From: an uncultured delta proteobacterium
GTDB taxonomy: Bacteria; Desulfobacterota; Desulfobacteria; Desulfobacterales; B30-G6
Assembly: GCA_963823335.1 (NCBI GenBank)
Contig: CAWGLD010000008.1
Location: forward strand, 1-64,000
Reading direction: 5' to 3'
DNA length: 64,000 nucleotides
Made by a program: the position numbers and the translations under genes. Shown in pieces: positions 2,104-18,805 of this stretch. The notes under the pieces were generated by a model, which was given only the letters and a program-made list of their open reading frames with translations, had not been told where the DNA came from and did no database searches. The first letter of the stretch is position 1; each line of letters starts with the position of its first letter.

Positions 2104-2714
2104 TCAAAGTAATTTTACTTCGAGGAGGGACATCTTAATATGCTCGGTGGCGGATTCCGTTAATCGTTTGGCATCCTGATTACGAATAGCGGAAATGATT
2201 TCGAGTGCGGACTTGAAGTAGTTCTCCTTGTCCTTTTCAATGGGAGAGAGCCAATACCGCAGGCATTGGCCGATAATCCTGGAAAGCAAAACAAAAAGCA
2301 CTTGATTATCAGTGGCCTTGAGAAGTGTCTCATGGAATCTCTGGTCAAGTTCTCCGAAAGACCTGGCCGGTTCTTCTGGACTCATTTCGCGCATTTCTCG
2401 TTCTATGTCCCAAAGCTCCTGCTGTACGGCTTCTGTTATGCGTTGCATAGCCCAAATATAGGCCTCAGGCTCCATTAGTAACCGGATTTCAATATTGTCC
2501 TTAAGGCGTTTAATTGTTAATGGAGTAACCATGAAATGACTGCCATGGCGTAAGAGCCAGCCCTCTCCCTGCAGCAGGATCAGTGCCTCTTTGACAGGAG
2601 TGCGGCTGATTCCGAAACTAGAGCCAAGTCGCTGACATTGATTATGTGCTCGGGCTCCATTTCAAGATGGATTATTTTGTTTCGCAGAATTTCGTGGATT
2701 TTTTTGGGGTCCAT
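2104..2714 (-). CDS. GntR (FadR/FCD) transcriptional regulator, frameshifted
   Basis: upstream frames give MDPKKIHEILRNKII and FGISRTPVKEAL (wHTH); FCD domain with DQRFH in 2104-2532. Confidence 0.85.
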
Positions 2715-3306
2715 AATATCCTTCACCTCAAGTAATACTTCATTAACTTAAGTTAGAATGAGTCACTTGTCATCCATTAAGGAGAGGCTTATACTCCCTA
2801 AAGGGGATGAATACTCAGTTACCAACTATAGCTCTTTTCAAAACATCTCATTTGGGCCACCCTTCATGTTGGATCAAGCTGAAAAATTTTGAAAGTCTCA
2901 TTACTGATCAACATATTCCTTTATGGAATCCAATACCGATTTTTTCGGCTGCACTTTTATCGACGCCCCTGATAAATAACAACTTGTCACATCCTGCTTT
3001 CTCCGGAACAATTGGGCTTTTTTGGATTACTATAGCATAATAGCAGATTAATTTAGAGTAATTAGGCTTGAATACAATCAGTATACGTTTAGGGTCACCT
3101 GTCTGTCAATATAGAAAAATCCACCTGAAGATACTTAGATATATCCTTTAAAAATCCCCATCGGGCGAAGGTCTGGATATAAGAATATCTCTCAAGAGAA
3201 TACTACTGTGGATCATATGAAGACATAAGGTCCATTTTATCAGCGCCAATTCGCCTACAATGTTGTTCGCTGGGTCCGGAGTTCTGACCACTCACCATAC
3301 CCCGAC

Positions 3307-4762
3307 TTATTTCTTATACCTCAATAATCTTCTGGATTTTATTGAGTACATCCAAAGACTTCGGTTGAATCTGGTGTTCAGCCAGAATACGTTTCGCCTC
3401 AATATTGCAGCGCTTATACAGATCAATCGCACCTTTCTTTTCCACTCATCGTAATAAGAACGATTAAGAAGTTTCGGGAGAAATTGGGCAGTTATGAAAT
3501 GTTTGAAGGTATGCTCATCGGAAAGAAAAATTTCTCCGGACTCTCCTGTTCCAACTCTCCTGATGGCGTCAATGGCCAAGGTATCTTCATTCACCAGGAT
3601 TCCCTGGACAAAGAACTTGCACATTTCCACCAATTCATTGCCCATGGTTACCATTTCCAGGCAAGATGTGTTGCCGTATTCAATGTAACCGACGTCGTGG
3701 ATCAGGTTGCAGCGAGACAACATGGAGGTTGCAATGGAGAACATCGATTCCGCACCCGCCTGCGCATCCATGGTTTTCGAGTCAGTTGCACCGGCATAAG
3801 CCCACACCGGCAAACCGTAAATCTCATCGCGCATCTGTGCCAGGGCAGCCTGGGTAAGACTCCATTCCGGACAGCCGTAGGAGATGATGCCCGATTTCAT
3901 GTCCAGTACGCTGACGTTGGGGCCAAAAAGGAAGGGGCATACCCCGACCCGCCAGTTGGTGAATCGTAAGGCCGGCCAGGTTCTCTAGCAATACCCATCG
4001 CCATAGCTCCGGCCATGGTCGCAGGGGCTCCTCCGCCCGCGTTGGAGCCCGAAGGTAGACAAACTGGAATTGCCTTTTGAGCACAGAAAACAAGCTTATC
4101 CATTACATGGGCGGGAAAACGAAGAGGGCTTATTGCTTCCGAATAGTTCAACAAAAAAGGCTTTTGTCTGAGGTTTTCCTCGCCACCGGCCACCGCGCAG
4201 GCGATTTCATGTATCTTGGCGATATCACGTCCGCCGTCCGCTATAAAGACGATGGGTTTGTTCGTATTCTTCACCATTTCGGCAAAAGAATAGACATAGA
4301 TATTGTCAACCGGGGCATCTTCCGGGTTGGACATAGACATTGCAAAAGAGATGTTTTCCAGTCCATCCACAAGGCGGGCAAAGTTGGCGGTGTCCTGGAG
4401 GCGCGAACGGCGGCGGTCGCCGCTTTCCAGATCGAGGGTGAAGGTCGTGTCAGAACCTGTTCCGTAGAAGAGATTGTTGTCGACCAGGGGCATCGCTTTG
4501 TTTCCCAACTGGTCGTACAGTGCGATTTGTCTAGGTGCCGATCTTCAGGGCATCTTCAACAAGAAAGGACGGAATACGGACCCAGTCGCCCTTGCCGGCC
4601 CTGCATCCTTTGTCCAGAAGCGTCCGGCGCACTTCCTGATGCTCCATTTTGATACCAATTTTCTCCAACACTTCTAAAGCAGCCGTATGAATTGCCAGGG
4701 CCTGTTCGACGGTTGATAACCTTCATGTACGGCTGCAAAGTAGGGATTTGTATTTGAGACAT
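3307..4762 (-). CDS. MttB-superfamily (non-pyrrolysine) corrinoid methyltransferase, frameshifted into 3 or more ORFs
   Basis: YGTGSD, TNKPIVF, EAISPL, APATMAG, GATDSKTMDAQAGAE, NLIHDVGY motifs. Confidence 0.88.
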
Positions 4763-4832
4763 TCCATTTCCTTCTTCGTTAATAATAACTTTGTACTAGC
4801 TTGAATGCATCATAGATCAGGAGAAAAGACAA

Positions 4833-5622
4833 ATGTGGCAACAGAGCAGAGATATGGGGATAAAAACTGCGGTGGGCCGTAAGAACAGGCACTGTTATGG
4901 TATGGGACTAGGGGTACTGCTCCTGGATGAGGTTTACCCCGGGTTTCCCGGTGACGTCCGGAATGCCAGCGGTTTCCCTTACCCAATACAGTACGAAATA
5001 GTCGAAGGCGTGGATATCCAGGCGCTTGTGTATCAAAAAGACAAATCTGCCTGCCTAGAGCCGTTAAAAAGAGCCGCCCAAAGACTTGAGTACATGGGCT
5101 GCCGGGCGATCGTGGCCGAATGCGGTTATTTTTCTTATTTTCAAAAGGAAGTAGCGGCCAGCGTTAACGTACCTGTATTCATGTCCAGCCTGCTGCAGAT
5201 ACCCTGGGCTCAACAGGTTATAGGATCGAACAAGGTGGTTGGCATTCTCATGAGCTGCAAAGCCGTTCTGCAGGACGAGCACCTAATAAACGTAGGCGTT
5301 GAGCTGGGAAGCAACTATGTCATCGGCGGGGTGATGGATGACAACGCCTGTCCCCAGTTTCATAACCTCTGGACCGAAGGTGTTCGACCGGAAATTCCTC
5401 AGGCCCTATACGAAAAAGCCGAAAAGGAATTTTTGGAGCAGGCGGTAAATTTTTTTTGAGTCCCACTCGAACATGGGGGCCATGGTGCTGGAATGCACCG
5501 GTTTCCCGCCTTTTGCCCGAGCGTTGCAAAGGGAAATAGATATCCCGGTATTCAGTTGGGGAACGCTGTTCGATTTTGCCTATTCAATAGTCGCGCATCG
5601 TGACTACTATGGGCATATATGA
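4833..5622 (+). CDS. aspartate/glutamate racemase-family protein, frameshift at poly-T near 5455
   Basis: PGDVRNA, AECGYF, VPVFMSSLLQ; continues in another frame with VLECTGFPPF to TGA at 5620-5622. Confidence 0.85.
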
Positions 5623-5627
5623 ACGAC

Positions 5628-5825: not shown

Positions 5826-7232
5826 CTAGAGCATTCTTTTGAGTTTGGAGAGCGTCGACGGCGGTAGAGGTTCCACCGGGGGACGTCTCGCCAAATCACG
5901 GACCATGGAGTTGACCCGTTTCTTTAAACTTAGGCCTCCGTTCTGCTTCCACTGGATATAACTCGAGCGGTCAAGAAGCCGGGGATGCCAGTCTTCCCGG
6001 AAATAACGGAAGGTGTGTTCTGTGTCCAGAAAATTGCACTCCGGGGCGGCCTGGTCAATGATATCCAGAACCAGGGTTTCGTCATTTACCCGCAGTGGAT
6101 TTAGGAATTTTTTCAGCCAGCCAATTATCTCATCACAAAATACGACAAGCTCAAAGCTCCCGGTCATGGCCGAATCCAGATAACCCAAATTCTGAATCAG
6201 GTTCGCACCCCGGAAGGTGTTGCTGAAAAGGGTCAGACTTGCGTCGGACGTAGCCTGGCCGTCAAAGACCTTGGAATCACTGGCTCCGGCGGAGCATAAA
6301 GCAGCTAATTGGTAGTGATTGGCAAGAGCGCAACCGTAGGCCCCGGCATCGGGGCTCACATAGAGGTCCACCATGGTTTTCATATCCATTGCTCCAACAC
6401 TGGGATTGTTCAGGATAAACGGCGAACCTTCATGAACCAGCTGAGAGAGCACAAGTCCGCCCAGTTGTCCTGCATTTCCAAGGGCCAGCATGCCCGCCAC
6501 GGTCATGGGCGCTGTGGTTCCCCTGGAATTGCCTGGGGCATAGATAGTAGGAATGTTCTCTGCCGCCGCGTCCATTAGCCGCTGAAGACTCTCCTGGTTG
6601 TGATTAAGTGCATTGACGGTGTTGACATAATTGATAATAAAAGGCCTTTTACCGAGCTCCTCCCGTCCGTGCACCTCTGACGCCATGCTAATTGCTTCTG
6701 TGGTGCAGTCCTGGGCCACACCCGTAAAGACGATGGGTTTGATATTCTCGTTAAGCATCACCAGCATCTGGTGGCGGCCGTAATTTTCGGCCGACACATC
6801 CGATGGGACGAACATCGACATGACAAAATCAATGTTTGAAAGGCCGGAAACCAGTTTCATTCCCTGGGAAATATCACCCAGAACGGCTTTGCGACGGTTG
6901 CCGTCATCAATATCGTAGATATATATACTGTCCGATCCCACACCGTAATAACTGGTGCGGCGGTTTCCTCCGATCAGCATAGCCGGTTCCAGGTTGCGGT
7001 TGTAAATAGTCAGCTCCTTCGAGACCGTTCGCAGAGCCCACTCAACCAAACTTGGTTTGATTTTCACAATATTGCCGTCAATATCGGCGCCGGCTTTTTT
7101 GAAAAGTTCCAGAGCTCCCCGATGGTGGAAGGCCAACCCTGTTTTTTGTAAAATATGCAATGACCCCTCGTGAAGCTTTTGAACCTCAGACAGGCTAGCA
7201 GGACGGTATTCGTTGGACATTATCTCAGACAT
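5826..7232 (-). CDS. MttB-superfamily (non-pyrrolysine) corrinoid methyltransferase
   Basis: YGVGSD, TAPMTVAG, GASDSKVFDGQA, GANLIQNLGYL; no in-frame amber codon; start after GAGGAG. Confidence 0.9.
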   Translation of the reverse strand: MSEIMSNEYRPASLSEVQKLHEGSLHILQKTGLAFHHRGALELFKKAGADIDGNIVKIKPSLVEWALRTVSKELTIYNRNLEPAMLIGGNRRTSYYGVGSDSIYIYDIDDGNRRKAVLGDISQGMKLVSGLSNIDFVMSMFVPSDVSAENYGRHQMLVMLNENIKPIVFTGVAQDCTTEAISMASEVHGREELGKRPFIINYVNTVNALNHNQESLQRLMDAAAENIPTIYAPGNSRGTTAPMTVAGMLALGNAGQLGGLVLSQLVHEGSPFILNNPSVGAMDMKTMVDLYVSPDAGAYGCALANHYQLAALCSAGASDSKVFDGQATSDASLTLFSNTFRGANLIQNLGYLDSAMTGSFELVVFCDEIIGWLKKFLNPLRVNDETLVLDIIDQAAPECNFLDTEHTFRYFREDWHPRLLDRSSYIQWKQNGGLSLKKRVNSMVRDLARRPPVEPLPPSTLSKLKRML

Positions 7233-7257
7233 TGAAATTGACTTCTCCTCAAGAAAA

Positions 7258-8676
7258 TTACAGTTTTGGAATAGGCTTCCAGAAACTGGTTGCCTTCTCA
7301 AATGCCCGGGCAGCATTCAATATAAGCAGCTCCTCAAAAGGTCGGCCGACAATTTGGAGGCCTACGGGGAGCCCTGCCTTAGTAAACCCGCAGGGTAGGG
7401 TCAGCGCGGGGTTTCCGGTCAAGTTAAAAACTTCGTTATACTGAGTCATAGCCCTGACGACACCAATCTGCTCCTTGCCGACAGTAACCAGGGCTTGTCC
7501 TGGCAAGCTGGCAGGGACGGGCATGGCCGGGCCGACGATGAGGTCTACTTTCTCAAAAAGATGCTTAGTATCTGCGACAAGTAGTGTTCTGGCTTTTTGA
7601 GCCCTCAAATAGTCGGCGGCCGATATCAACAACCCAGCCTCCAGTCGCAATCTCAAGGCTGGCAAAAGCCTCTGGCCGTCGTTCTTCACCAGCTCCTCAT
7701 AAGCGGAAGATGCTTCAGACAGAAGAATGAAATTGCTTATGTTTTCCGCATAGACCAGCATGGGCCAGGGTGGTTCCAATATTTCTGCCCCTAATTCCTT
7801 CAGCACGTTAACGGCATTTTCGACCCAGTACCTCACTTCCGGGTCCATGGGAAGCTTCCAGTATTCAACCGGAAGACCAATTCTCAGACCCTTGATGCCC
7901 CGGTTCAAAGGGACCGAAAAATTCGGTATGGACATTTTGGCGGAAGATGGGTCTTGAGTGTCATATCCACTCAGGGCCTGCATAACGATTGCGCAGTCTT
8001 CCGCCCGCCGGGTCAAGGGGCCGGGATGATCAAGGCTCCAAGCTAACGCTTGCATTCCATGGCGACTGATGCGTCCATAGGTTGGTTTCAGGGCTACTAC
8101 TCCGCACCAAGCGGCAGGGATGCGCAGTGATCCACCGCTGTCACTGCCCACGGAAAATGGGCAAAAGCCCGCAGCCACAGCCGCCCCTGATCCACCGCTG
8201 GATCCACCGGAGATGTGGTTTAAATCCCAGGGCGTAAACGTATGGCCGAAGTCGTATCCCGGTTCTGTAGCAAAGGGACCATAAGCCAGTGGGTTCATGT
8301 TCTGCTTGCCAAGCAGGATGGCCCCTGCCTGCTGAAGACGAATCGTCACCGTACTGTCTATTGTCGATATATTTTCATGAAAAAGCCTGCTGCCTAATGT
8401 GAAACGTTTGCCCCGAACCATGAAAAGATCTTTCAAGCCAAAAGGAATTCCATGTAGCGGGCCACTGTAAGCACCTTTTAAAATTTCCTGTTCCGCCTTC
8501 CGGGCCTTGGATAGAGCGTCATTTCGGAAAAGCGTGATAAATGAATTGATTTTACCGTCATGAGCTTCGATACGATCCAGGCAGGCTGTGACCAGTTCAA
8601 CCGGCGATATTTCGCCCCTGCTGAGAAGGTCGGACAGCTCCTTAATGCCCATGAAGCAAAGGTCAGTTGCGGGCAT
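7258..8676 (-). CDS. amidase signature family protein (GatA/AtzE-like)
   Basis: PLHGIPFGLKD, GGSSGGSGAAV, GSDSGGSLRIPA. Confidence 0.93.
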   Translation of the reverse strand: MPATDLCFMGIKELSDLLSRGEISPVELVTACLDRIEAHDGKINSFITLFRNDALSKARKAEQEILKGAYSGPLHGIPFGLKDLFMVRGKRFTLGSRLFHENISTIDSTVTIRLQQAGAILLGKQNMNPLAYGPFATEPGYDFGHTFTPWDLNHISGGSSGGSGAAVAAGFCPFSVGSDSGGSLRIPAAWCGVVALKPTYGRISRHGMQALAWSLDHPGPLTRRAEDCAIVMQALSGYDTQDPSSAKMSIPNFSVPLNRGIKGLRIGLPVEYWKLPMDPEVRYWVENAVNVLKELGAEILEPPWPMLVYAENISNFILLSEASSAYEELVKNDGQRLLPALRLRLEAGLLISAADYLRAQKARTLLVADTKHLFEKVDLIVGPAMPVPASLPGQALVTVGKEQIGVVRAMTQYNEVFNLTGNPALTLPCGFTKAGLPVGLQIVGRPFEELLILNAARAFEKATSFWKPIPKL

Positions 8677-8682
8677 GTGGAT

Positions 8683-8967
8683 TCATTCCTCCGAAAAGGG
8701 CCTGATGCTGAAAAACAGGGCCGGTTCCACCTGTTCCAGATTCAGTTCCTGAATGGATCTGGTTTTTCCGAAAACACGTGTCATTTGGTCCGCCGTTTCT
8801 TCATCCCCGGAATGATCCTGTCCCGGTTGCGGTTTTAAGATGGCGAACAATCGGCGGCTGTAATCGTAAAGCTCGCTTTTAAGAAGACTCTCTGATAATT
8901 CAAGGCCATTTATGGCTGTCAACAGCGAAAATGCTTTTCGTTCCATGGTCGAAAACCCTCCGATCAT
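8683..8967 (-). CDS. small protein, possible GatC/AtzG-like amidase partner
   Basis: coupled between hutI and the amidase; ends LEQVEPALFF. Confidence 0.55.
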   Translation of the reverse strand: MIGGFSTMERKAFSLLTAINGLELSESLLKSELYDYSRRLFAILKPQPGQDHSGDEETADQMTRVFGKTRSIQELNLEQVEPALFFSIRPFSEE

Positions 8968-10242
8968 TGGGAAAGGCAGTTATCCCATACAATTTTACCT
9001 TTTTTGATAACAGTGGAGGCCAATCCGCCACTGGGATTAGCGCATAACTGCAGGTGATTTGCAACATCCCAGATTACGATATCAGCCTGTTTGCCGGGTT
9101 CCATTGATCCGATTTTATCCCCTCGACCAATGGCATATGCAGAATTGATTGTTGCCGCGGTTAGCGCTTCAGCCGGACTCATTCCAGCGCTGTAGCATCC
9201 CAGAGCTATGACCAGAGACAATGATTCAACAGGACAACTAGGATTGAAATCAGTACCCAGGGCCACGGCCAGTCCGGCATCTATGAACCGGCGTGCGTCT
9301 AATGGAATATTCAGGCGATGTACTATGGGGATGGCCGGCAGCAGGACGGCCATGACTCCGGCCCGCTGCATGGCTTTCAGATCCTCCGGACTGGCGTGTA
9401 GACAGTGTTCTGCACTTATCGCTCCACACCGAGCTGCCAGGGCGGCCCCGCCTACGTGGGCAAATTCGTCGGCGTGCACCTTGGGCATCAAACCAAATTT
9501 TTTAGCTACGGAAAAAAGCCGCTCGGTCTGTTCCGGAGGAAAAGTAACACCGCTATCGTAAAACCTGGCCAGACGCCGTTTGGCCACTTGTGGAATCATT
9601 TCCTTTATGATTAGTTCGAGAAAATCTTCCGGTTGATTGGCATACTCAGGCGGAATGTCGTGAGCCCCAAACAAAGTGGGTACGATTTCCACCGGACCTT
9701 CCTGGTTCAGTCTCTGCATGGCCTCAAGAAGTCGAATTTCTCCCTGGGTGTTCAGTGCATAGCCACTCTTGGCTTCTATCGTTGTGACACCGTTTCTCAT
9801 CATCCGGCGCAGGACCGTGCGGGCCTGGGACAGTAACGTTTCCATGTCGGCATCTCTTGTATGCCTTACCGATGCCAGCACGCCTCCGCCCATGCTCTCT
9901 ATTTCCGCATAGCTCAGCCCTTTCTCAATTTTCAAGCGGAATTCGTTCTCACGGGAACCGGCGAACACCAGATGCGTGTGGGCATCCACCAGTCCAGGGG
10001 AACCAAGCCGGCCCTTGGCGTTAATCAGTCTAGTTTTCGGACCGGGCTTGAATCTGCTCGCAACCTCTTCTTCAGGACCTGCGGCCACTATCAAGCCTGC
10101 GGTCACGGCAACCATCCCATTTTTAACAGCGGCGATTTTATCCATATCCCGCCCACAACGGGGACCGCTCTCTCGTCGAAGACAGTGTCACAAGTTCTCC
10201 AACGTTATGGATCAGCATATCCGGGTGTCTGAAATCATCCAT
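8964..10242 (-). CDS. hutI: imidazolonepropionase-like amidohydrolase, 5' frameshift near 10150
   Basis: DAHTHLVFAGSRENEF, EAKSGY, GAH, HADE, TDFNP; likely start ATG 10242 overlaps the hutH stop (MLIHNVGELVT). Confidence 0.92.
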
Positions 10243-11774: not shown

Positions 11775-12976
11775 TACGTTATCTCCTCAAAATCAGAATG
11801 CGACAACATCTCTGTTTTCATGTTAGGTCCTCCAAGTCCGGCAATTAATCTGGCCAATAGTAGCGTTCTTGGCAGTATGCTTTTAATGAGCAACCGCTCT
11901 CTGCGGCTGCAATCGTCCAGAGCGATGGGACCAAGCCCATCTAAAGTCGGTATTCCGCGTGCTGCCACAAAGCTTCCATCTGACCCACCTCTTGTGTGAA
12001 TTTCGGGCAAAGGCATCCCCATCTCTTTGGCAATTGCCAGCGCCCGGCGATAAAGGTACACAGTTCCTGGTGACCGAGGGAATTCAGGTCGCGATTGCCG
12101 CCCTTCCAACTTTAGGGTAACTTTCGGATTCTGTTGGAGCAGTGCTATCTTGCGGATGTTCGCCACTAGTTTGTCTGCTTCTTCCTGGTTGGGTGCTCGA
12201 TAGTCTATTTCCATTTCCGCCTTAGCCGGAATCACCTGTCGTGCTTCGCCACCCTTAAAAATGCCTACATTGAGCAATATCCCCTTTTCTATATGCGTCA
12301 AATCCTCCAGGGAAGACACTTTGGTTGCGAGCTCTTTGATGGCGCTGGCCCCTTCACCTCTGTTCACGGCGCAGTGAGCACTTACCCCATGAGCGCTAAG
12401 TGTGAATCGACCCATGACCGCCCTTTGCGTGACGACACCATTGTTCTCACGCCCGGGCTCCATAACTAGTGCATAGTCGGCTTGGTCCCCCTCATTTTCT
12501 ATCCATATCCGTGAGTTTGGCGATCCCACCTCTTCGTCCGGGACGAGCATGAAGGTTATTGATTCCAAATGTTCGGCTGCACCGGTAACCATAAGGGCTT
12601 CCAGTGCAGTCAATGCAACCACCAAGCCGCCCTTCATGTCCCCTACACCTGGCCCCAGGGCAAAACCATCATCGGTAACAGCAAACGGCCATTCGGCTAA
12701 GGTTCCCTTTGGCCAGACCGTGTCCAAATGGCCAAGAATAAGAATCTTGCCTTTTCCGCCCAAAGAGCGGCGGGCAAGAACTTGATCACCAATGTTTTGT
12801 TGAGGCTTTTTTTCAATAATAAAGCCGATGCGTTCCAGTTCACGGGCCATATATGCACCGGCTCGATCGACCCCTTCCTTGTCATAGGAATTTGTTTCGA
12901 TATTCACCAGGGCTTCGATATGCTTTAAAGGCTCTTGCTTTATGCTTTCCAGAAAAGTGTGAATCTCTTTTTTCAT
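11774..12976 (-). CDS. M20 family metallo-hydrolase (carboxypeptidase G2-like)
   Basis: GHLDTV, GDMKGG, DEEVGS, MEPGR, GGSDG. Confidence 0.92.
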   Translation of the reverse strand: MKKEIHTFLESIKQEPLKHIEALVNIETNSYDKEGVDRAGAYMARELERIGFIIEKKPQQNIGDQVLARRSLGGKGKILILGHLDTVWPKGTLAEWPFAVTDDGFALGPGVGDMKGGLVVALTALEALMVTGAAEHLESITFMLVPDEEVGSPNSRIWIENEGDQADYALVMEPGRENNGVVTQRAVMGRFTLSAHGVSAHCAVNRGEGASAIKELATKVSSLEDLTHIEKGILLNVGIFKGGEARQVIPAKAEMEIDYRAPNQEEADKLVANIRKIALLQQNPKVTLKLEGRQSRPEFPRSPGTVYLYRRALAIAKEMGMPLPEIHTRGGSDGSFVAARGIPTLDGLGPIALDDCSRRERLLIKSILPRTLLLARLIAGLGGPNMKTEMLSHSDFEEIT

Positions 12977-12985: not shown

Positions 12986-13810
12986 CTAATCCAGGCTCAT
13001 GAACTTACCGATGCCGATAAATTTTTCAATCAACAGGGCCAGCAGCAAGGTCATTAAAATTAGAATGGTAGACATGGCTGCAATTGTTGGGTCGTCCATG
13101 GTGCGCATGTAATTCATAGCTTCGATGGCCAGGGTGTTGGTATTCATCTCCACCAGGAAGATAACGATTGAAACATCCTCTAAAACCATGGTGAAAATAA
13201 ATATGCATCCACTGAGGATTCCCGGCCCGATCTGGGGAAAAACAATCTTCCAGAATGTAGTCCAGCGGCTGGCTCCCATGTTGATGGCCGCTTCATCTAT
13301 ATGGGAGCTCAGTCCGTGAAGATTGGCGGTTATGGTCCGGATAGGATAGGCGACGGTACAGATGGTCATGGCGATGACCAGTTTGCCGAAGCTCCAGCTA
13401 AAACCAACAATCCCGAAAAAGGTTAGCAGGGCCATACCGGTGATGATTCCCGGAACCACTATCGGTGAGAGTACCAGTGAATTCAAAAATACTTTACCTT
13501 TGAATTCCCCCCTAACCAGGGCATAGGCAGTTCCCATACCAAAAAGTGTGGCCAAGGGTATTACACAGGCGGCCAGACCGAGACTTACGAGAAATGCGTG
13601 TCTGAAATAATCCAGTGAAAATAGGTTAAAGTACCATCTTAGGGAAAGGCGGGTGAAGGAAAACCCAAAATATGCGCTTGGATTGAATGAATAGGCAATG
13701 GTGAAAATCACCGGCATGGCAATGAATATTACAATTGCCGCAACAGCGATGGTCAGGCTGGGGCCTATCATACTGAAGTCATTCTTGTTCTTGTAAATTG
13801 CCCTTCTCAT
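12986..13810 (-). CDS. ABC transporter permease (PotC-like)
   Basis: TM helices; EAAINMGA loop. Confidence 0.92.
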   Translation of the reverse strand: MRRAIYKNKNDFSMIGPSLTIAVAAIVIFIAMPVIFTIAYSFNPSAYFGFSFTRLSLRWYFNLFSLDYFRHAFLVSLGLAACVIPLATLFGMGTAYALVRGEFKGKVFLNSLVLSPIVVPGIITGMALLTFFGIVGFSWSFGKLVIAMTICTVAYPIRTITANLHGLSSHIDEAAINMGASRWTTFWKIVFPQIGPGILSGCIFIFTMVLEDVSIVIFLVEMNTNTLAIEAMNYMRTMDDPTIAAMSTILILMTLLLALLIEKFIGIGKFMSLD

Positions 13811-13815: not shown

Positions 13816-14742
13816 TTACTCATACCTTTGCTTAAGAACGTTTTGCAAACGGGCAAGCCCGATAACTGTAGCCAGAGAAACAATCAGAAGCATAATGGCA
13901 AGCACCGCGGCAAAAGGCAGGTCGTAAGAAATGGCGATCTTTTCATAAATGATGTTGGACATCATTTTCACCCGGCCTCCACCAAGAAGCAGAGGGAAGA
14001 GAAACGAACTCAAGGCCAGGGCGAACGTCAGAGATACCGTTTCAATGACGGCCGATATAGTCAGCGGAAAAATTATCTTCATAAAGACTTTGAATTTGTT
14101 AGCACCCATGTTTATGGCGGCCTCCTCCAATGAACGGGGAATGTTCTGAATGGGGCCAAGCAGAACCAGGGCTGCAAAGGGTACCAGATAGTGAACCACG
14201 CTGATTATTACACCTCGCCAGGAATAGAGGAATTGAATCGGGTGGTTGATGATGCCCATGGCTTTGAGTATTGAATTCACCAGCCCCACGTTACCCAGCA
14301 TTATTATCCAAGCATAGGCAATGGTGATTCCTCCGGCCAGAAGGGGAACCAACATGACGATCATAATGATGTACCGGGCCGCCTTCGATCTAGTTCGAAC
14401 CGTGAAGTAGGCCAGGGGATAAGCGATCACCAGGGTGATGGCCGTCATCTCGCCCGAACGCCATATGGATTCCCACAAAAAGGATGGATAGAGAGGATCG
14501 GAGAAAAATCGTATATAGCTATTGAATGTCCACGCATCGCCGACCATTGCCAGACCGGGTACTAGTTCGTGAAAACTTTCAAGGATGAAAGAGAAGTAGG
14601 ATACAAAAAACAGCAGCAGGAGAATCATGATCGGCAGCAGAAGCAAACAGATGGTTTTTGCCGTCAGTGCCTGGTAATCCATGCTGTTTTTGCTGTTTGT
14701 TTCTGCATCGCCATCGTAAGTCAAGGATGCATTTGCCACCAT
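13816..14742 (-). CDS. ABC transporter permease (PotB-like)
   Basis: AYPLAY, EEAAINMGA. Confidence 0.92.
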   Translation of the reverse strand: MVANASLTYDGDAETNSKNSMDYQALTAKTICLLLLPIMILLLLFFVSYFSFILESFHELVPGLAMVGDAWTFNSYIRFFSDPLYPSFLWESIWRSGEMTAITLVIAYPLAYFTVRTRSKAARYIIMIVMLVPLLAGGITIAYAWIIMLGNVGLVNSILKAMGIINHPIQFLYSWRGVIISVVHYLVPFAALVLLGPIQNIPRSLEEAAINMGANKFKVFMKIIFPLTISAVIETVSLTFALALSSFLFPLLLGGGRVKMMSNIIYEKIAISYDLPFAAVLAIMLLIVSLATVIGLARLQNVLKQRYE

Positions 14743-14746
14743 CGGT

Positions 14747-15874
14747 CTACCTTTCTATCAAAGTGCAGTTTTGTCCCATGATGGTGACTTCCACCTCGCA
14801 ATTGGGTTCGAAACCTGCACATCGTTCCTGGCGCGGCGCCTCGACTATCAGTGTGAGCCCGTGGGGAATCCGAACCTCGTAGGTGATAAGAGAACCTGCA
14901 TTTGTGGTGAACGTTATCACTCCGGGCAGATGCAGACATTCGTCCGAATTTTGATTCGTCAGAGCCTCATTGTTCTCCTTTCTGGCCACGATCTGAATGC
15001 GCTCGCCCCTTACAGCGATAATTACATCTGATGAAATCGGTTTTTCCCTTATGGGTACTTTCAGCCTCTCTTTTCCGAGAAGTTCCACGGTAGCTTCATT
15101 GCGGTTCGTACTTATTACGGTTGCGTTGAAAAAATGAGGGATACCCAGGAACTCGGCCACGAATTTGGTTTTGGGGTGGTCATATATCTCCAGGGGTTTT
15201 CCTTCGTGTTCTATATGCCCGTAATTCATTACCGCAATTCGGTCCGAGATGGTCATGGCCTCCTTCTGGTCATGGGTCACGAATAGGGTCGTTATTTTTA
15301 AAAGTTGTTGAAGCTTCCTGACTTCGAACTGCATTTCATCCTTAAGATTGCGATCAAGGGCGGCGAACGGCTCATCCAGAAGCAGAACACTGGGTTGGAA
15401 GGCAAGAACACGGGCCAGGGCGACTCTCTGCTTCATACCGCCGCTTAACTGACCGGGATAGCTGTTTTTTAGGTCGGCAAGGTGCACCAAATCCAGACAC
15501 TCCATGGCCCTTTTATAGATGGCTTTACGATTCATTTTGCGCATTCTGAGACCAAACGTAATGTTATCGTAAACGGTCATGTGCGGGAAAAGGCAATAGT
15601 GCTGGAACACCATTCCAACATTTCTCTTGTTGGGAGAAATTGAGTTAAGAAGTTTGCCAGCCACCCTGACCTCACCGTGGGTTGGGGTTACGAAACCCGC
15701 CAGAATTCTTAAAAGCGTTGACTTTCCGCATCCGCTGGGCCCCAGCATAGATAGCAATTCGCCTTCTCTAATGGTTATGGAGACACCGGAAAGGACTTCC
15801 TTGCGTCCATACACCTTACGGATATCTTTGAACTCTACATAATCATTTTGTAATGATTGCTGCATAGGTAACAA
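14747..15874 (-). CDS. ABC transporter ATP-binding protein (PotA-like)
   Basis: GPSGCGKS, LSGGMKQR, LLLDEP. Confidence 0.95.
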   Translation of the reverse strand: MLPMQQSLQNDYVEFKDIRKVYGRKEVLSGVSITIREGELLSMLGPSGCGKSTLLRILAGFVTPTHGEVRVAGKLLNSISPNKRNVGMVFQHYCLFPHMTVYDNITFGLRMRKMNRKAIYKRAMECLDLVHLADLKNSYPGQLSGGMKQRVALARVLAFQPSVLLLDEPFAALDRNLKDEMQFEVRKLQQLLKITTLFVTHDQKEAMTISDRIAVMNYGHIEHEGKPLEIYDHPKTKFVAEFLGIPHFFNATVISTNRNEATVELLGKERLKVPIREKPISSDVIIAVRGERIQIVARKENNEALTNQNSDECLHLPGVITFTTNAGSLITYEVRIPHGLTLIVEAPRQERCAGFEPNCEVEVTIMGQNCTLIER

Positions 15875-15968: not shown

Positions 15969-15995
15969 GTGATGACGGAAAAATTCCGTCATCAC
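15969..15995. terminator. intercistronic hairpin downstream of the binding-protein gene
   Basis: GTGATGACGGAA-AAA-TTCCGTCATCAC perfect stem. Confidence 0.6.
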
Positions 15996-16024
15996 TTTGT
16001 CGAAGGTTATTGCCAAATTAAATT

Positions 16025-17053
16025 CTATTTGACGAATTCCTTATCCCACTGTTCGATCCATTTGGCAAGGTTGTCCTTTACCGCGGCATGGTCGATAATC
16101 AGGGAATCTTCTGGTTTGGGAAAGTCGTTGGTGAGGATTTCCGTGGCGTCTACCTTACTGTTTACCGGGGCACATTTATGGGGAAGCACCGAAATCTCCT
16201 GAGCCCACTTGGAAACCATCATGTCTATGAATTTATGTGCCAGATCCTCATTGCCGTTATTGACCACGGTCATGACGTCAAAAGAGACCGGAGTCGGTTT
16301 GGGATTGACGACTTCAGCGGGAATTCCCGCTTCGGTAAGGTAATCCAGACTGCCGGTGTTGCCGATAAGAACCGACACTTCACCTTGTGCCAGAAGTTTG
16401 CGTGAAGTGGAGTCATTATCGTAGAAAGTGACCACATTGGGCATGAGTTGCTTTATTTTTTCGAAGCCCGGCTGGATATTGGTTTCGCTGCCGCCGTTTA
16501 TTTTGGCTGCAACCACCAGGAAAGTGCCCTGGTCAAAGGAGGGCGGAGGGACTGCAAGCTGCTTTTTGAATTCCGGTCGCCAAAGATCTTCCCAAGTTTT
16601 AATCTCCATGGGGCAGATGTCTTTGCGATAAATAATCCCTTGGGGGTAATAGAGCTGGGCTACGTATTTTTTATTGAGTGCACCCTCAACCAGGTCGGCC
16701 CGGTTGGTGATCTTGTCGGGATCTATGTCAGCTATCAGCCCCGGCGGTGCGGTGCTGGGCATTGCTGAATCACAGAACCAGACGTCAACACCCGGTTTCC
16801 CCTGGGCAGCCATCATTTTGGCGAGGCCTTCAGACGACCCGGACTGCATGACGGCCTTGACTGGAACGCCATATTTTTCCTCGAATTTTTTAGCAACGTC
16901 CTTTACGCCCACATTCCAGGTGGCGCCCCACAGCATAACTGTAAGTGCTTTCTCCTCAGCAGCGGCTTTAATCGGATTCAGCACCATAGGCATGAGCAGA
17001 GTCAGTGTTAACAGTGCAACCATTCCGATTTTGTAACAATTGGTAGTCTTCAT
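16025..17053 (-). CDS. ABC transporter substrate-binding protein (PotD/PotF-like)
   Basis: signal peptide; TWEDLW motif; operon position. Confidence 0.9.
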   Translation of the reverse strand: MKTTNCYKIGMVALLTLTLLMPMVLNPIKAAAEEKALTVMLWGATWNVGVKDVAKKFEEKYGVPVKAVMQSGSSEGLAKMMAAQGKPGVDVWFCDSAMPSTAPPGLIADIDPDKITNRADLVEGALNKKYVAQLYYPQGIIYRKDICPMEIKTWEDLWRPEFKKQLAVPPPSFDQGTFLVVAAKINGGSETNIQPGFEKIKQLMPNVVTFYDNDSTSRKLLAQGEVSVLIGNTGSLDYLTEAGIPAEVVNPKPTPVSFDVMTVVNNGNEDLAHKFIDMMVSKWAQEISVLPHKCAPVNSKVDATEILTNDFPKPEDSLIIDHAAVKDNLAKWIEQWDKEFVK

Positions 17054-17149
17054 CGATTCCTCCTTCGCGTTTAGGGTTCTCTTTCGGTTTTTGGCACGTC
17101 ACTATTTGCTTCCTTTAAACTTCGAATCATGTAAATTCAGAACTATCTT

Positions 17150-18805
17150 CTACGTTCTCAGTGGAGTTATTTTGTTAAGATTGTGTTCGCGGGCACACTC
17201 CCGGGCGATTTCGTAACCCGCGTCTGCATATCGAATGATGCCGAGACCGGTCTCGGCATCCAGGGTTTTTTGGATTCTTGTAAACCCAGTCTGAGTTCCA
17301 TCTGCTATCAGGGTAGTCCCACTACTGACACTCACCCCCGTGCTTCCGCCAGCCGCCGAATGAATGGTGACCAGGTCAGCCCGGCAGGTTACATTCAACA
17401 ATGCGTTCAGTAGTGGCCAATCGGCAATAGCGTCGCTGCCGTCAAGCATGTTTTCCGTTTCACGGTGAGGCATGGCTACCGAAGCTGCGTCTAAATGGTC
17501 TCGTGTGAAAGCTACCGGACCCTTGAGCTTGCCCTCCCGCACTAGGTTGTTGACCATGGTCCCTATTTTGCTTCTTTGCCCATGAGAGGCCCAGCAAATA
17601 CGGGCGGGAAGCCCCTCAACGGGAACATGCTTAGCGGCTAGTTTGAGCCAGCCAGAAATGTGAGGCTCATCTGGAAATTCTCGTATCAACATGTCATCTA
17701 TCACTTCTATGTCCGTGGGATCACCGGAAATGGCTATCCATCGGAATGGACCACAGCCCCGGCAGAAGAACGGGCGAATGAATTTTTCCATGAATCCGGG
17801 GATATGGAAGGCATCGGACACACCACCATGATCCCTGGCTTTTTCCCTAAGCAGGTTGCCGTATTCAAATGCCACAACACCTTTTTCATGGAACTCAAGG
17901 ATGGCTTTCATATGGATGGCCATGGATTGGAAGGCTTCTTTTAAATATTGATCCGGATTTTTTCGTGCAAAATCGGCCGCCTGTTCTACATCGTAGCCCA
18001 CAGGCACATAACCGCCTGCCAGAGGATCACTGGCCGCAGTCTGATCAGTTACAACATCGGGAGTAACACCTCTTCGCAAAAGCTCGGGCAAAACCTCGGC
18101 AGCGTTGCCCACCAGTCCCACTGAAAGGGGCTTTTTATCAGCCACTGCCGTACGGCAAACATCCAAAGCTTCGTCAAGATCGTACACTATACGGTGGCAA
18201 TAACCGTTATCAACTCTGCGTTGTATTTTGGCGGGATTGACATCTATCACAAGCGCCACCCCGCCGTTCATGGTCACCGCTAGCGGTTGAGCCCCGCCCA
18301 TACCACCGCACCCTCCGGTAACCACAAATTTGCCTTCCAAATTCCCTCCAAAGTATTGCTTGGCTACCGAATAGAAGGTCATGTATGTACCTTGGACAAT
18401 ACCCTGGGTGCCAATGTATTGCCAACCACCGGCGGTGAAACCGGCCGGCATGATCAATCCCTTTGCTTCGAGTTCATAGAAAATTTCGGGTCGTGAGTAT
18501 TGTCCGACCAGGTTGGCATTGGCCATGATCACCAAAGGTGCGTCGGCATGGGTCTGAAAAAGTCCTACTGGCTTTCCGGATTGAATCAAAAGGGTTTCAT
18601 CCTCATTCATGGTCTTAAGGATATGGACTATTTGCTCGAAACACTCCCAATTACGGGCCGCCCGGGCGCTAGACATATAAATAACCAGGTCTTCAGGTCG
18701 CTCGCCCACTTCTAAAACGTTTTCCAGCATCCTCAAAAGGGTCTCCTGGCGCCAACCTTTGCATCGAATCGTGGGGCCACGCATGGCTTTAATTTGACGA
18801 GACAT
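17150..18805 (-). CDS. hutU: urocanate hydratase-family protein, divergent
   Basis: QSGKPVG, YIGTQGIVQGTY, GGMGGAQPLA, LPARICW, RDHLD, RETE, DGSDAIADWP. Confidence 0.93.
   Translation of the reverse strand: MSRQIKAMRGPTIRCKGWRQETLLRMLENVLEVGERPEDLVIYMSSARAARNWECFEQIVHILKTMNEDETLLIQSGKPVGLFQTHADAPLVIMANANLVGQYSRPEIFYELEAKGLIMPAGFTAGGWQYIGTQGIVQGTYMTFYSVAKQYFGGNLEGKFVVTGGCGGMGGAQPLAVTMNGGVALVIDVNPAKIQRRVDNGYCHRIVYDLDEALDVCRTAVADKKPLSVGLVGNAAEVLPELLRRGVTPDVVTDQTAASDPLAGGYVPVGYDVEQAADFARKNPDQYLKEAFQSMAIHMKAILEFHEKGVVAFEYGNLLREKARDHGGVSDAFHIPGFMEKFIRPFFCRGCGPFRWIAISGDPTDIEVIDDMLIREFPDEPHISGWLKLAAKHVPVEGLPARICWASHGQRSKIGTMVNNLVREGKLKGPVAFTRDHLDAASVAMPHRETENMLDGSDAIADWPLLNALLNVTCRADLVTIHSAAGGSTGVSVSSGTTLIADGTQTGFTRIQKTLDAETGLGIIRYADAGYEIARECAREHNLNKITPLRT

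Follow-up and report, generated by a model that had tools for sequence, protein, structure and literature searches.

A hut-type operon ending in a non-pyrrolysine MttB gene, a candidate route for catabolism of a methylated histidine derivative in an uncultured delta proteobacterium

Why should a run of histidine-utilization (hut) genes end in a gene for an MttB-superfamily methyltransferase? We analyzed 64,000 nucleotides of an uncultured delta proteobacterium, a sediment organism of the sulfate-reducer type (positions 1 to 64,000 of contig CAWGLD010000008.1, hereafter the window), in which a minus-strand run from position 18805 to 5826 encodes a HutU-like protein, an ABC importer, an M20 hydrolase, HutH, HutI, a small protein, an amidase, and MttB1, with intergenic gaps of -1 to 150 nt. 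A preliminary description of this DNA had recognized the closely spaced run from hutU to mttB, which stands, and had proposed the import of hercynine, ergothioneine, or N-methylhistidine, its demethylation by corrinoid chemistry, and its degradation by Hut chemistry. Our own reading, to which we assign a probability of about 0.5, is that the operon serves to break down a histidine derivative that is N-methylated and also modified on the ring. MttB1 would pass one methyl to a corrinoid protein whose gene lies elsewhere, and the amidase and the M20 enzyme would replace HutF, HutG, and FtcD. If this is true, the operon represents an undescribed oxygen-free route for the breakdown of a methylated histidine relative, and a literature search, which found no paper tying MttB to hut or hercynine, agrees with the preliminary statement that no described pathway is known to combine the two. 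The operon genes are as follows.

17150..18805, minus strand: HutU-like hydratase with all three urocanase domains (Pfam)
16025..17053, minus strand: periplasmic solute-binding protein, PotD/PhnS-like (Pfam SBP_bac_8/6/1/11; weak PotD and PhnS matches)
14747..15874, minus strand: ATPase of the ABC transporter, carrying a TOBE domain (Pfam ABC_tran and TOBE_2; PotA/PhnT2-like)
13816..14742, minus strand: ABC permease, PotB-like (Pfam BPD_transp_1; NCBIfam PotB, 131 bits)
12986..13810, minus strand: ABC permease, PotC-like (Pfam BPD_transp_1; NCBIfam PotC, 123 bits)
11774..12976, minus strand: M20 metallohydrolase, carboxypeptidase-G2-like (Pfam Peptidase_M20 and M20_dimer)
10242..11774, minus strand: HutH paralogue, MIO-dependent ammonia-lyase family (TIGR01225, 603.6 versus a cut-off of 539)
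8964..10145, minus strand: HutI paralogue, imidazolonepropionase family (TIGR01224, 383 versus a cut-off of 298)
8683..8946 (ORF 8683-8967), minus strand: small conserved protein, 87 aa from a conserved Met, no family match assigned
7258..8676, minus strand: amidase-signature enzyme, GatA/AtzE-like (Pfam Amidase, 378 bits)
5826..7232 (ORF to 7316), minus strand: MttB1, methyltransferase of the MttB superfamily without pyrrolysine, terminal in the operon (PF06253, 238 bits)

A Pfam scan of the 55 window ORFs recovered no HutG, HutF, or FtcD, in line with the earlier remark that hutG and hutF are missing. Nor did it reveal a corrinoid protein, a methyl-THF methyltransferase, or a reductive activator, which tells against our main reading. 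Short contigs from two estuary-sediment RNA libraries match the greater part of the operon with a likeness of at least 90%, and one of them bridges the amidase/MttB1 junction (7126-7415), a weak hint that the operon is expressed.

The preliminary description had extended the island beyond MttB1 to a racemase-family gene, a second mttB, and a GntR regulator; all three are frameshifted, and the supposed pair of MttB enzymes comes down to one intact gene and one pseudogene.

4833..5622, plus strand: Asp/Glu-racemase-superfamily gene (PRK07475), frameshifted (pieces 4833-5459 and 5473-5622)
4776..4814, no strand: site of a missing corrinoid-protein gene (39 bp in the window versus 1361 bp in contig L001, a relative with the region intact; blastn segments)
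3295..4775, minus strand: MttB2 pseudogene (three MTTB pieces in different frames, 3307-4775; five 1-nt frameshifts)
2731..3294, no strand: stretch found where L001 has its methyl-THF:corrinoid methyltransferase gene (not similar to L001 15115-16407 by blastn)
2104..2730, minus strand: GntR/FCD regulator, frameshifted (pieces 2104-2532, with the FCD domain, and 2580-2726)

Compared with the intact 481-aa gene of L001, MttB2 carries five 1-nt indels, none within a long homopolymer, and contigs from other samples differ by 1 nt at four sites that coincide with the frameshifts or lie no more than a few bases away. The racemase-like gene is broken by a single additional T, in a T8 run, relative to L001, whose copy scores 257 against the PRK07475 cut-off of 231; the gene falls in two frames in the window only and occupies one frame in L002, L003, and six other loci. 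The GntR gene has lost one base at 2622 relative to L083 and is whole in L083, L084, and L001 (207 to 210 aa). Between its accessory genes L001 also encodes a corrinoid protein (222 aa, with B12-binding and B12-binding_2 domains) and a methyl-THF:corrinoid methyltransferase (Pterin_bind; PRK07535 score of 318, above the cut-off of 259), both of which are deleted in the window. The accessory module, comprising the second MttB, the racemase-like gene, the corrinoid protein, and the methyl-THF methyltransferase, is decaying here. That the regulator and the entire accessory module are broken in the window is a point against our main reading. The corrinoid chemistry of the preliminary description finds support in the intact L001 cluster and in corrinoid genes elsewhere in the genome, but not in the window itself.

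The linkage of mttB to hut genes, on which the preliminary description had staked its reading, recurs in other contigs. An MttB1 orthologue of at least 70% identity is accompanied by the hut, M20, and amidase genes in every contig whose flanks are long enough, 7 of 7 in all (from 79 loci examined, the window, L001, L002, and L003; from 80 more, L083, L084, and L085), and the 12 MttB1-clade clusters apparently have 10 contigs in common with HutU- or HutH-clade clusters. A minimal form with a single MttB is found in the window, L083, L084, and L085. The operon is rare, which is another point against our main reading: it was not found in 400 other genomes sampled from the phylum or in 200 from the order, two of which belong to the same genus. 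It is probably a self-contained catabolic unit and probably subject to horizontal mobility. Two more hut loci in the host genome adjoin MttB genes of other, unrelated subfamilies. When three hut blocks were placed at random against 20 MttB places in 4.37 Mb, 0.6% of 200,000 trials brought at least 2 of the 3 to within 2 kb of an MttB and 0.08% brought all three to within 10 kb, figures to be read with the fact that two of the blocks share a 35-kb region.

The product of MttB1 is a full-length protein with 0 in-frame TAG codons. Its nearest solved structure is MtgB (9yce/2qne, E of 8e-52), yet 0 of the 4 MtgB substrate-contact residues are kept: Y97, R312, H348, and F356, whose roles are described in PMC13080624, are replaced by V, L, Q, and A, and R312 is reported there to be conserved in all characterized members. 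In a quick tree with long branches the hut-linked sequences form one clade (SH-aLRT of 100) with its own pocket signature: relative to the nearest homologues (52-53% identity), one of the 4 MtgB contact columns changes from F to L and a second from H to Q. The nearest homologues of MttB1, at 50 to 55% identity, occur outside hut contexts with other MttBs, a racemase-like gene, and a methylaspartate ammonia-lyase.

It is conceivable that MttB1 acts on an unrelated betaine and that a variant histidine-utilization operon merely neighbors it, through the crowding of MttB genes in the genome and a shared regulation of nitrogen-rich osmolyte catabolism. The genome holds 19 full-length MttB-family genes (versus 4 corrinoid proteins), the nearest homologues sit in non-hut settings, and among the other 76 MttB loci a urocanase lies nearby at L069 alone, on the opposite strand. 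We nevertheless consider this account improbable: MttB1 is the terminal gene of the operon, starting 25 nt past the amidase stop, its reading frame is intact in all six orthologous contigs of one comparison and in 7 of 7 by the count above while the adjoining module decays or is lost, its clade has a distinct pocket, and the two other hut loci with adjoining MttB genes would arise by chance with a P of about 0.006.

HutH, HutU, and HutI of the operon score 603, 715, and 383, all above the curated hutH, hutU, and hutI cut-offs. The genome that holds L001 also has a canonical operon, hutC-hutH(695)-hutU(915)-ftcD-cyclodeaminase-hutI(475), from which the enzymes described here are distinct; they are paralogues, in support of the preliminary description, and not the housekeeping set. 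On the NCBIfam models for S-methyl thiourocanate hydratase, thiourocanate hydratase, and hutU, the operon HutU scores 778 (cut-off of 880), 749 (cut-off of 930), and 715, compared with 693, 665, and 915 for the canonical HutU of genome G001; true Ert-type hydratases reach 697 to 703 on the hutU model, near the operon enzyme. A quick tree, again with long branches, places HutU with the (S-methyl)thiourocanate hydratases and away from canonical HutU (supports of 91 to 99). It departs at 6 of 185 conserved columns, and its clade-specific changes H259S, R280A, and L406A are absent from the reference thiourocanate hydratases. HutH, with a GASGD MIO motif at residue 142, departs at 6 of 116 conserved columns, with clade-specific changes (F369S, S378N, G379C, M381G, E352D, and E393D) at columns invariant in 91 outgroup sequences. 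Judged by conserved motifs, it retains presumed counterparts of every named type of histidine ammonia-lyase substrate-binding residue (roles as given in 10.1101/2025.08.13.670108). The changes at otherwise invariant columns run mostly from large to small, as in HutH M381G and F369S and HutU R280A, L406A, and H259S. HutI has just two mild departures in 51 conserved columns, and its next relative in a 50%-clustered library is 48% identical; on TIGR01224 it scores 383 versus 475 for the canonical G001 HutI. The histidine-type binding motifs kept by HutH, the nearly unaltered conserved columns of HutI, and the lack of the HutU changes in the reference thiourocanate hydratases are observations that weigh against our main reading.

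Because HutH keeps the MIO motif, it should need a primary alpha-amine and should not act directly on hercynine or ergothioneine; the trimethylammonia-lyases that do so are MIO-less, according to the same report (10.1101/2025.08.13.670108). The HutU step lies past the loss of the alpha-amine, so its residue changes suggest that the extra group is on the ring. Together, the HutH and HutU substitutions point to a ring substituent rather than to N-alpha methylation alone, and the hercynine or ergothioneine substrate of the preliminary description would not hold for direct action by HutH.

The affinity of HutU for the thiourocanate enzymes raises the possibility of a 2-thio substrate, ergothioneine or S-methyl-ergothioneine, from which MttB would strip the N-alpha methyls in place of trimethylamine elimination; thiourocanate-type chemistry would follow, with the M20 enzyme as an N-carbamoylglutamate amidohydrolase. 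The two top family models of HutU and its tree position fit this account, and reference Ert clusters finish with an M20-family carbamoylase. It is nonetheless very unlikely: HutU falls under both curated cut-offs, the operon proteins include no thiohydantoin desulfurase (DUF917) or ErtD, neither the M20 enzyme nor HutI matches its Ert counterpart (ErtE and ErtD, respectively), the lyase keeps MIO where ergothionases do not, and a single MttB would have to account for three demethylations.

Alternatively, demethylation might come first, with MttB1 (and MttB2 where present) turning hercynine, N-alpha-methylhistidines, or N-tau/N-pi-methylhistidine into L-histidine for ordinary Hut chemistry; the amidase and the M20 enzyme would then stand in for HutF and HutG as analogues of formiminoglutamate deiminase and N-formylglutamate deformylase, and the divergence of the Hut proteins would reflect acquisition of the island from elsewhere. 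HutH lies above the hutH equivalog cut-off with its MIO and presumed binding motifs in place, so plain histidine may still be its substrate, and HutI is almost unchanged at conserved columns. Characterized non-pyrrolysine MttBs all take quaternary amines according to PMC13080624, and hercynine is histidine betaine; physiological work (PMC9768040) reports a corrinoid-type demethylation that takes glycine betaine to sarcosine step by step. L001, moreover, combines two MttBs with a corrinoid protein and a methyl-THF methyltransferase in an MtgABC-like set, and the island seems mobile, its contigs being labelled with different classes and absent from the same-genus genomes examined. Against this, a genome with a canonical hut operon would need no second HutH/HutU/HutI set for plain histidine, HutU clusters with hydratases of C2-substituted urocanates and not with canonical HutU, invariant residues are replaced in both HutH and HutU, and the minimal operon has one MttB while hercynine requires three demethylations ahead of an MIO lyase. 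On balance we think this order of events rather unlikely.

The best solved relative of the solute-binding protein, 4edp_A, has no named ligand. The nearest solved structure to the M20 enzyme is carboxypeptidase G2 (1cg2, E of 1e-44); its identity as an ErtE orthologue was ruled out (E of 0.015 to 0.8). AtzE-family and GatA models give the amidase 320 to 343 bits, under their cut-offs, and among solved structures GatA and biuret hydrolase 6c62 come closest to it. The small protein is kept in L001, L003, L083, and L085 at 43 to 78% identity, and only the L001 copy has a weak match to GatC (E of 0.099); it is possibly a GatC/AtzG-like partner of the amidase.

From the gene content, order, conservation, paralogy, and residue changes we infer the following catalytic roles for our preferred reading, catabolism of a ring-modified histidine derivative. 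The compound would enter via the PotD-type ABC importer and lose ammonia to the MIO-dependent HutH paralogue; the resulting substituted urocanate would be hydrated by the HutU paralogue, kin of (S-methyl)thiourocanate hydratases, and the ring opened by the HutI paralogue. In place of HutF, HutG, and FtcD, the amidase (GatA/AtzE-like, probably with the small protein) and the CPG2-like M20 enzyme would yield L-glutamate, the latter by freeing it from N-acyl, N-formyl, or N-carbamoyl glutamate. At a point that we place no more firmly than the substrate itself, MttB1 would move an N-methyl group to a corrinoid protein, from which it would reach tetrahydrofolate for oxidation; the corrinoid protein and methyl-THF methyltransferase would be supplied from elsewhere in the host genome; in L001 their genes are adjacent to the operon. 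The likely substrate combines a free alpha-amino group with an extra substituent on the imidazole, at C2 or N-tau on its far side, and carries one or more methyl groups on a cationic nitrogen. Ring-N-methylated histidines, including those of the ovothiol type, are tentative candidates, as is, to the same degree, some compound outside the classes named here; N-alpha-methylated histidines of the hercynine series, demethylated ahead of the lyase step, are a more doubtful proposal, and cationic histidines substituted at C2, free diphthine or diphthamide for example, are unlikely. According to PMC13080624, all characterized non-pyrrolysine MttB enzymes use trimethylammonium or related quaternary compounds, which counts against our main reading; to take the methyl from a ring nitrogen or an amidinium would require chemistry of a new kind.

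Among known systems, the MtgB/MtgC/MtgA glycine betaine:THF system of Desulfitobacterium hafniense, together with the other characterized non-pyrrolysine enzymes MtpB, MtcB, MtyB, and MthB, is the closest to MttB1, which is likewise a full-length PF06253 protein without pyrrolysine, and in L001 an MttB is combined with a corrinoid protein and a pterin-binding methyltransferase, the same arrangement in three parts. MttB1 is only about 30% identical to MtgB and retains none of its four contacts; unlike the Mtg system it lies within a hut-type operon, and 4 of the 5 contigs reaching past MttB1 (the window, L083, L084, and L085) have no adjoining corrinoid protein or MT2. The canonical Hut pathway shares HutH (with MIO), HutU, and HutI, all of which pass its curated cut-offs here, but the operon enzymes are paralogues, with invariant residues replaced in HutH and HutU, and in place of FtcD, HutG, and HutF the operon has the amidase, the small protein, and the CPG2-like M20 enzyme. 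AtzE/AtzG 1-carboxybiuret hydrolase and GatCA likewise have an amidase-signature protein after a small conserved protein, although the operon amidase falls under all curated cut-offs and the GatC match of the small protein is marginal. The Shewanella hercynine trimethylammonia-lyases are also HAL-family enzymes acting anaerobically on a methylated histidine derivative in marine bacteria; they are reported to lack MIO and to release trimethylamine, feeding a urocanate reductase (10.1101/2025.08.13.670108; 10.64898/2026.04.22.720169), whereas the operon HutH has MIO and methyl loss is proposed to occur via corrinoid transfer. Finally, the Ert clusters (ergothionase, thiourocanate hydratase, thiohydantoin desulfurase, ErtD, and ErtE; references, Burkholderia plasmid locus L166 and Agrobacterium plasmid locus L165) have no counterpart to the operon MttB and amidase, the operon has no orthologues of the desulfurase, ErtD, or ErtE, and trimethylamine is eliminated there, while the MIO kept by the operon lyase implies elimination of ammonia. 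Their hydratases nevertheless belong to the same radiation as the operon HutU, and both systems would follow the same logic, in which a ring-substituted histidine is degraded along Hut-like lines and an M20-family hydrolase finally releases glutamate.

The operon on the minus strand of the window was annotated with Pfam and NCBIfam, and the assignments agree with the gene list of the preliminary description, giving 11 closely spaced genes:

18805-5826, minus strand: in order, a urocanase-family protein (HutU), a PotD/PhnS-like binding protein, an ABC ATPase, two permeases, an M20-family protein, a HutH-family protein, a HutI-family protein, a small ORF, an amidase-signature protein, and an MttB-family methyltransferase (MttB1)

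Intergenic gaps range from -1 to 150 nt, with 25 nt between the amidase stop and the MttB1 start. Short contigs from two RNA libraries lie over most of the operon, including the amidase/MttB1 junction, which falls short of proving transcription. The formiminoglutamate-processing enzyme of a complete Hut pathway (FtcD, HutG, or HutF together with HutG) is missing among the 55 ORFs scanned in the window, as had already been remarked for hutG and hutF, and an FtcD is present in the other hut operon of the genome (G000; 4.37 Mb, 11 contigs, 93.9% complete). A search of the whole window against Rfam at gathering thresholds returned nothing, including no riboswitch, and a promoter and terminator scan found fewer sites than in shuffles and none that were usable. 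No sequencing run contained half or more of the sampled words of the window, and because the matching contigs are short and come from relatives, we make no claim about habitat or abundance.

Just upstream of the operon, the region at 20000-26000 is AT-rich (GC 0.36-0.42, versus 0.47-0.52 in the operon) and holds ORFs of 465, 296, 218, and 114 amino acids with no Pfam match. It is followed by a Tad/Flp pilus locus at 26633-36244, three genes of which each seem to be divided into two ORFs:

28136-28918 and 28939-29556: secretin, apparently split
34295-34711 and 34672-35265: TadB-like protein, apparently split
35266-35805 and 35489-36244: TadC-like protein, apparently split

Our preferred reading, to which we assign a probability of about 0.5, is that the operon serves to break down a histidine derivative that is N-methylated, modified on the ring, and free at its alpha-amine, with MttB1 passing one methyl group to a corrinoid protein. 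This methyl might come off the imported compound itself, an N-methyl-amidinium product of ring opening, or a betaine-like side chain.

On sequence grounds, the Hut enzymes of the cluster are paralogues. The window HutH, HutU, and HutI score 603, 715, and 383 bits, and the genome holding L001, a related locus with the same operon, has in addition a canonical operon with HutC, HutH (695 bits), HutU (915 bits), FtcD, cyclodeaminase, and HutI (475 bits). HutH and HutI pass TIGR01225 (603.6 bits versus a cut-off of 539.15) and TIGR01224 (383 versus 298 bits), respectively. The cluster clade of HutU (n = 13) departs at six of 185 columns with ≥95% conservation across 82 outgroup sequences (H259S, R280A, L406A, G484A, V500I, and D518E), and R280A and L406A are unique to this clade and absent from the Ert references, two plasmid-borne clusters for the catabolism of ergothioneine or S-methyl-ergothioneine. 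By the same criterion the HutH clade (n = 12) departs at 6 of 116 columns (E352D, F369S, S378N, G379C, M381G, and E393D). HutI departs at only 2 of 51 conserved columns. We take the Met at HutH position 381 to line the ring-binding pocket of the HAL/TAL family and, by its spacing from the N-pi-binding Glu, to lie one helical turn from the ergothionase residue that contacts the C2-thiolate. That both HutH and HutU exchange large residues for small ones suggests an additional group on the ring, which would survive the lyase step. The window HutH retains the MIO motif and residues presumed to correspond to the catalytic Tyr and to those binding the carboxylate, N-tau, and N-pi, with roles as named in the available part of a Shewanella preprint (10.1101/2025.08.13.670108). 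The main rival to our reading is that the compound is first demethylated to plain histidine and then degraded by an otherwise ordinary pathway; the residues that HutH retains are in its favor and the replacement of otherwise invariant residues in HutH and HutU is against it, and we regard it as possible, if rather doubtful.

The remaining enzymes of the operon may supply the missing downstream steps. The M20 protein is nearest to carboxypeptidase G2, an enzyme that frees glutamate from N-acyl-glutamates, and the amidase (Pfam Amidase, 378 bits) is nearest to GatA and AtzE-type enzymes. The small protein that precedes the amidase is conserved in five contigs, with a marginal match to GatC (E = 0.099). 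We propose that the amidase, the small protein, and the M20 enzyme jointly stand in for HutF/HutG or FtcD, acting on a formimino-, acylimidoyl-, or carbamoyl-glutamate. Such a set, an amidase with a putative small subunit plus a carboxypeptidase G2-like M20, is a likely non-orthologous replacement for HutF/HutG.

MttB1 matches the MTTB profile PF06253 at 238.5 bits (cut-off 25; profile positions 30-489 of 500) with no in-frame UAG and no stop inside the match, which places it in the non-pyrrolysine branch. The genome holds 26 MTTB matches, 19 of them taken as full-length; a TAG at residues 324-335 in six of these 19 shows that pyrrolysine is used by the organism. MtgB is the nearest solved structure to MttB1, and Y97, R312, H348, and F356 are the MtgB residues that hold glycine betaine according to the portion of the source that was available (PMC13080624). 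V, L, Q, and A align with these four positions in all six hut-linked orthologues, none of which keeps the MtgB contacts, and at two of the four columns the nearest non-hut homologues carry F and H. These homologues belong to Anaerolineae clusters that also encode two or three additional MttBs, the racemase-like protein of this locus, an Fe-S protein, and methylaspartate ammonia-lyase. Among Anaerolineae/Chloroflexia MAG contigs of this kind (L005, L006, L044, L048, and L054), we observed one to three further MttBs, a PRK07475 racemase-like gene, an Fe-S protein, and unassigned proteins of 456-544 amino acids, with methylaspartate ammonia-lyase in L005 and L044; such clusters may encode a serial-demethylation route for another amino-acid betaine.

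The other two parts of a three-component system, a corrinoid protein and a methyl-THF (or CoM) methyltransferase, are absent from the window and are both present in L001. Elsewhere in G000 there are four corrinoid-protein genes, all outside the window, for the 19 full-length MttB genes, and of its two PRK07535-type methyl-THF:corrinoid methyltransferase matches, one exceeds the cut-off and the other, which contains an in-frame stop, falls short of it. With four corrinoid proteins and only one or two methyltransferases to serve 19 MttBs, sharing of partners in trans is therefore the rule in this organism.

Linkage between mttB and hut genes in other genomes, which the preliminary description had proposed to look for, is recurrent: the operon was found in seven of seven contigs that carry an MttB1 orthologue with enough flank. 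A scan with MttB1 over one genome per species recovered 79 loci, of which three (L001, L002, and L003; MttB1 at 76-88% identity) all carry the hut, M20, and amidase genes, and the other 76, at 37-55% identity, lack the operon. One of the latter, L069, has a urocanase gene 2 kb from its MttB on the opposite strand, which we judged possibly due to chance and did not count as further linkage. A scan of metagenomes with the amidase gave 80 loci, and the three with an amidase at 64-87% identity all show the order M20-HutH-HutI-small ORF-amidase-MttB1. Protein searches returned twelve 90%-identity clusters of MttB1 at ≥70% identity, twelve of HutU at ≥73%, and eleven of HutH at ≥70%, and ten contigs, matched by their lengths, hold both MttB1 clusters and HutU/HutH clusters. 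An apparent exception, a 6.1-Mb genome with the Hut paralogues and seemingly without MttB1, was dismissed, as its MttB1 is a non-representative member of cluster P0245. The idea that MttB1 is a passenger has in its favor the 19 full-length MttB genes of the genome and the non-hut contexts of the nearest homologues, and against it the position of MttB1 at the end of the operon and its retention in all seven contigs; we consider it unlikely, and less likely than prior demethylation to histidine. In a quick maximum-likelihood tree the hut-linked MttB1 sequences form one clade (SH-aLRT 100) nested among Chloroflexota homologues. The operon was not found in 400 other genomes sampled from the phylum or 200 from the order, including two of the same genus, and the records of its carriers are assigned to different classes; this sporadic occurrence across classes fits horizontal spread.

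Beyond MttB1 the preliminary description listed a racemase, a second mttB, and a GntR regulator, all of which proved to be broken, with frames split or a base missing. MttB2 (3295-4775) is spread over three frames, the racemase-family gene is interrupted at a T8 run, and the GntR gene lacks one base at 2622. The intact arrangement is seen in L001, which lies on a 4.8-Mb chromosome-level MAG and has the whole operon (its long genes encode proteins 76-92% identical to those of the window, and its small-ORF product is 64% identical), followed after MttB1 by a racemase-like gene (271 aa, opposite strand), a corrinoid protein (222 aa), MttB2 (481 aa), a pterin-binding methyl-THF:corrinoid methyltransferase (277 aa), and a GntR/FCD regulator (210 aa). 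DNA comparison with L001 demonstrates that the corrinoid-protein gene has been deleted from the window, which has 39 bp where L001 has 1361 bp, and that the methyltransferase gene is gone as well. MttB2 contains five 1-nt frameshifts, none in a long homopolymer, and contigs of other samples have single-base indels relative to the window at 4543, 3986/3987, 3934, and 3437, each coinciding with one of four frameshift sites or lying a few bases from it; the remaining indels among those listed are all intergenic. Assembly error was considered as the cause of the breaks, and we regard it as unlikely for MttB2 given five non-homopolymer indels in 1.4 kb and two whole genes missing; the adjoining 12.9-kb operon, unlike MttB2, has no such indel in its coding parts. 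We read the broken genes as real decay of the accessory module, with the possible exception of the racemase-like gene, where the T8-run shift alone could be an assembly slip. In the metagenome contigs L083 and L084 an intact GntR gene directly follows MttB1, the end state of a natural series in which the accessory methyltransferase module is intact, decaying, and lost.

G000 encodes three HutU-family, three HutH-family, and two HutI-family proteins, and both further hut loci, on contig 7, also lie near MttB genes:

L081 9893-19846 and L082 108-1957, all on one strand: hut operon with FtcD cyclodeaminase, formiminotransferase, HutI, HutH, HutU, a very divergent non-Pyl MttB, and a polar-amino-acid ABC transporter
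L080 4606-19998 and L081 1-9458: methyltransferase-rich island

The island holds a divergent HutU/HutH pair (HutU very divergent, 435 bits; HutH, 668 bits) about 15 kb upstream of the contig-7 hut operon. With this pair are a HutC-like GntR/UTRA regulator, a corrinoid protein, a non-Pyl MtmB homologue (460 aa), an MtaA-like protein, and a RACo activator, and two MttB genes flank it at 8-10 kb, one with a GntR/FCD regulator; an Fe-S flavoprotein, a MetH-activation-like protein, a ferredoxin, two molybdopterin oxidoreductases, and an FAD/BBE oxidase complete the island. The hut-adjacent MttBs of contig 7 share no more than 35% identity with MttB1 and branch at separate places in the tree. Of random placements of the three hut blocks, 0.6% brought two or more of them to within 2 kb of an MttB. 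In the contig-7 operon, HutH retains the MIO motif, has Asp in place of the His aligned with the N-tau-binding His (a role named in the available part of the Shewanella preprint, 10.1101/2025.08.13.670108), and is changed at 15 nearly invariant columns in all. When 400 genomes of the phylum were searched for orthologues of C7:400778, the second hut-linked MttB, the only hits were relatives at 32-33% identity.

A more specific proposal, which we regard as a long shot, is that the operon is the first catabolic pathway for free diphthine or diphthamide. Diphthine and diphthamide are 2-[3-carboxy(amido)-3-(trimethylammonio)propyl]histidines, freed by digestion of the elongation factor 2 of archaea and eukaryotes. 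Such a compound would offer a free alpha-amine to an MIO lyase, and its bulky, cationic C2 substituent would account for the large-to-small changes in HutH and HutU, for the lost Arg and His, and for the kinship of HutU with hydratases of C2-substituted urocanates. The carboxamide would be the substrate of the amidase, ring opening would yield an N-acyl-glutamate for the carboxypeptidase G2-like M20, and the glutamate-betaine-like trimethylammonio-carboxypropyl moiety would be the substrate of MttB1. In its favor, the nearest MttB1 homologues sit with genes for an Asp/Glu-racemase-like protein and methylaspartate ammonia-lyase. On a wider view of this long shot, a single sediment bacterium would have turned MttB-family enzymes to different histidine derivatives on at least three separate occasions.

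Methylated histidine derivatives, which include hercynine, ergothioneine, ovothiols, methylhistidines, and diphthamide, occur widely in fungi, cyanobacteria, animals, and marine invertebrates. To our knowledge, the established routes for their breakdown either give off trimethylamine or have been described mostly in aerobes. If true, a corrinoid-dependent route would extend the substrate range of the MttB superfamily past simple betaines, give sulfate reducers and acetogens an extra methyl source in their competition with methylotrophic methanogens in sediments, and suggest specific candidates for a portion of the numerous orphan MttB genes. The literature search, which had subscription-only papers outside its reach, found no paper linking MttB enzymes to histidine derivatives (urocanate, hercynine, ergothioneine, or methylhistidine), and the available part of a study of Pyl-using marine Deltaproteobacteria mentions multiple non-Pyl MttB copies and no hut link (PMC8318568). 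The parts belong to known families, and what is new, as far as we can see, is their combination, a conserved MttB clade with a pocket of its own, and the repeated pairing of hut and MttB genes.

The Ert references allow a comparison with known systems. The Burkholderia plasmid cluster (L166) encodes a thiourocanate hydratase (1043 bits, cut-off 930), a thiohydantoin desulfurase, ErtD, ErtE, and a MIO-less lyase, and the Agrobacterium plasmid cluster (L165) an S-methyl thiourocanate hydratase (976 bits, cut-off 880), its desulfurase, ErtD, and ErtE. L165 (5010-17602) also has a molybdopterin S/N-oxide reductase, a glutathione S-transferase, and a glycine-betaine-type ABC importer and adjoins a gene annotated hutH. 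The window HutU passes TIGR01228 (715 bits versus a cut-off of 375), but this cut-off does not separate the activities, because both reference hydratases pass it with similar scores (697-703). It falls below the cut-offs of the models for S-methyl thiourocanate hydratase (NF058531; 778 versus 880) and thiourocanate hydratase (NF058530; 749 versus 930), scoring on them about as the references do on each other's models (762 and 727), with the canonical HutU at 693 and 665. In a quick tree, the window HutU clade and a clade at 62-68% identity are together sister to S-methyl thiourocanate hydratase (support 91), within a support-99 group that includes thiourocanate hydratase and the contig-7 HutU and stands apart from canonical HutU. 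An ergothioneine-type route would explain this kinship; the lyases of such routes, the trimethylammonia-lyases, have the HAL fold and lack the MIO-forming Ala-Ser-Gly, according to the part of the preprint available (10.1101/2025.08.13.670108), and the window HutH carries that motif (GASGD at residue 142), which is absent from the Burkholderia lyase. We hold this route to be very unlikely, and less likely than prior demethylation to histidine. Kinship with the Ert clusters is limited to the window HutU: the window M20 is not ErtE, and the window HutI is not ErtD.
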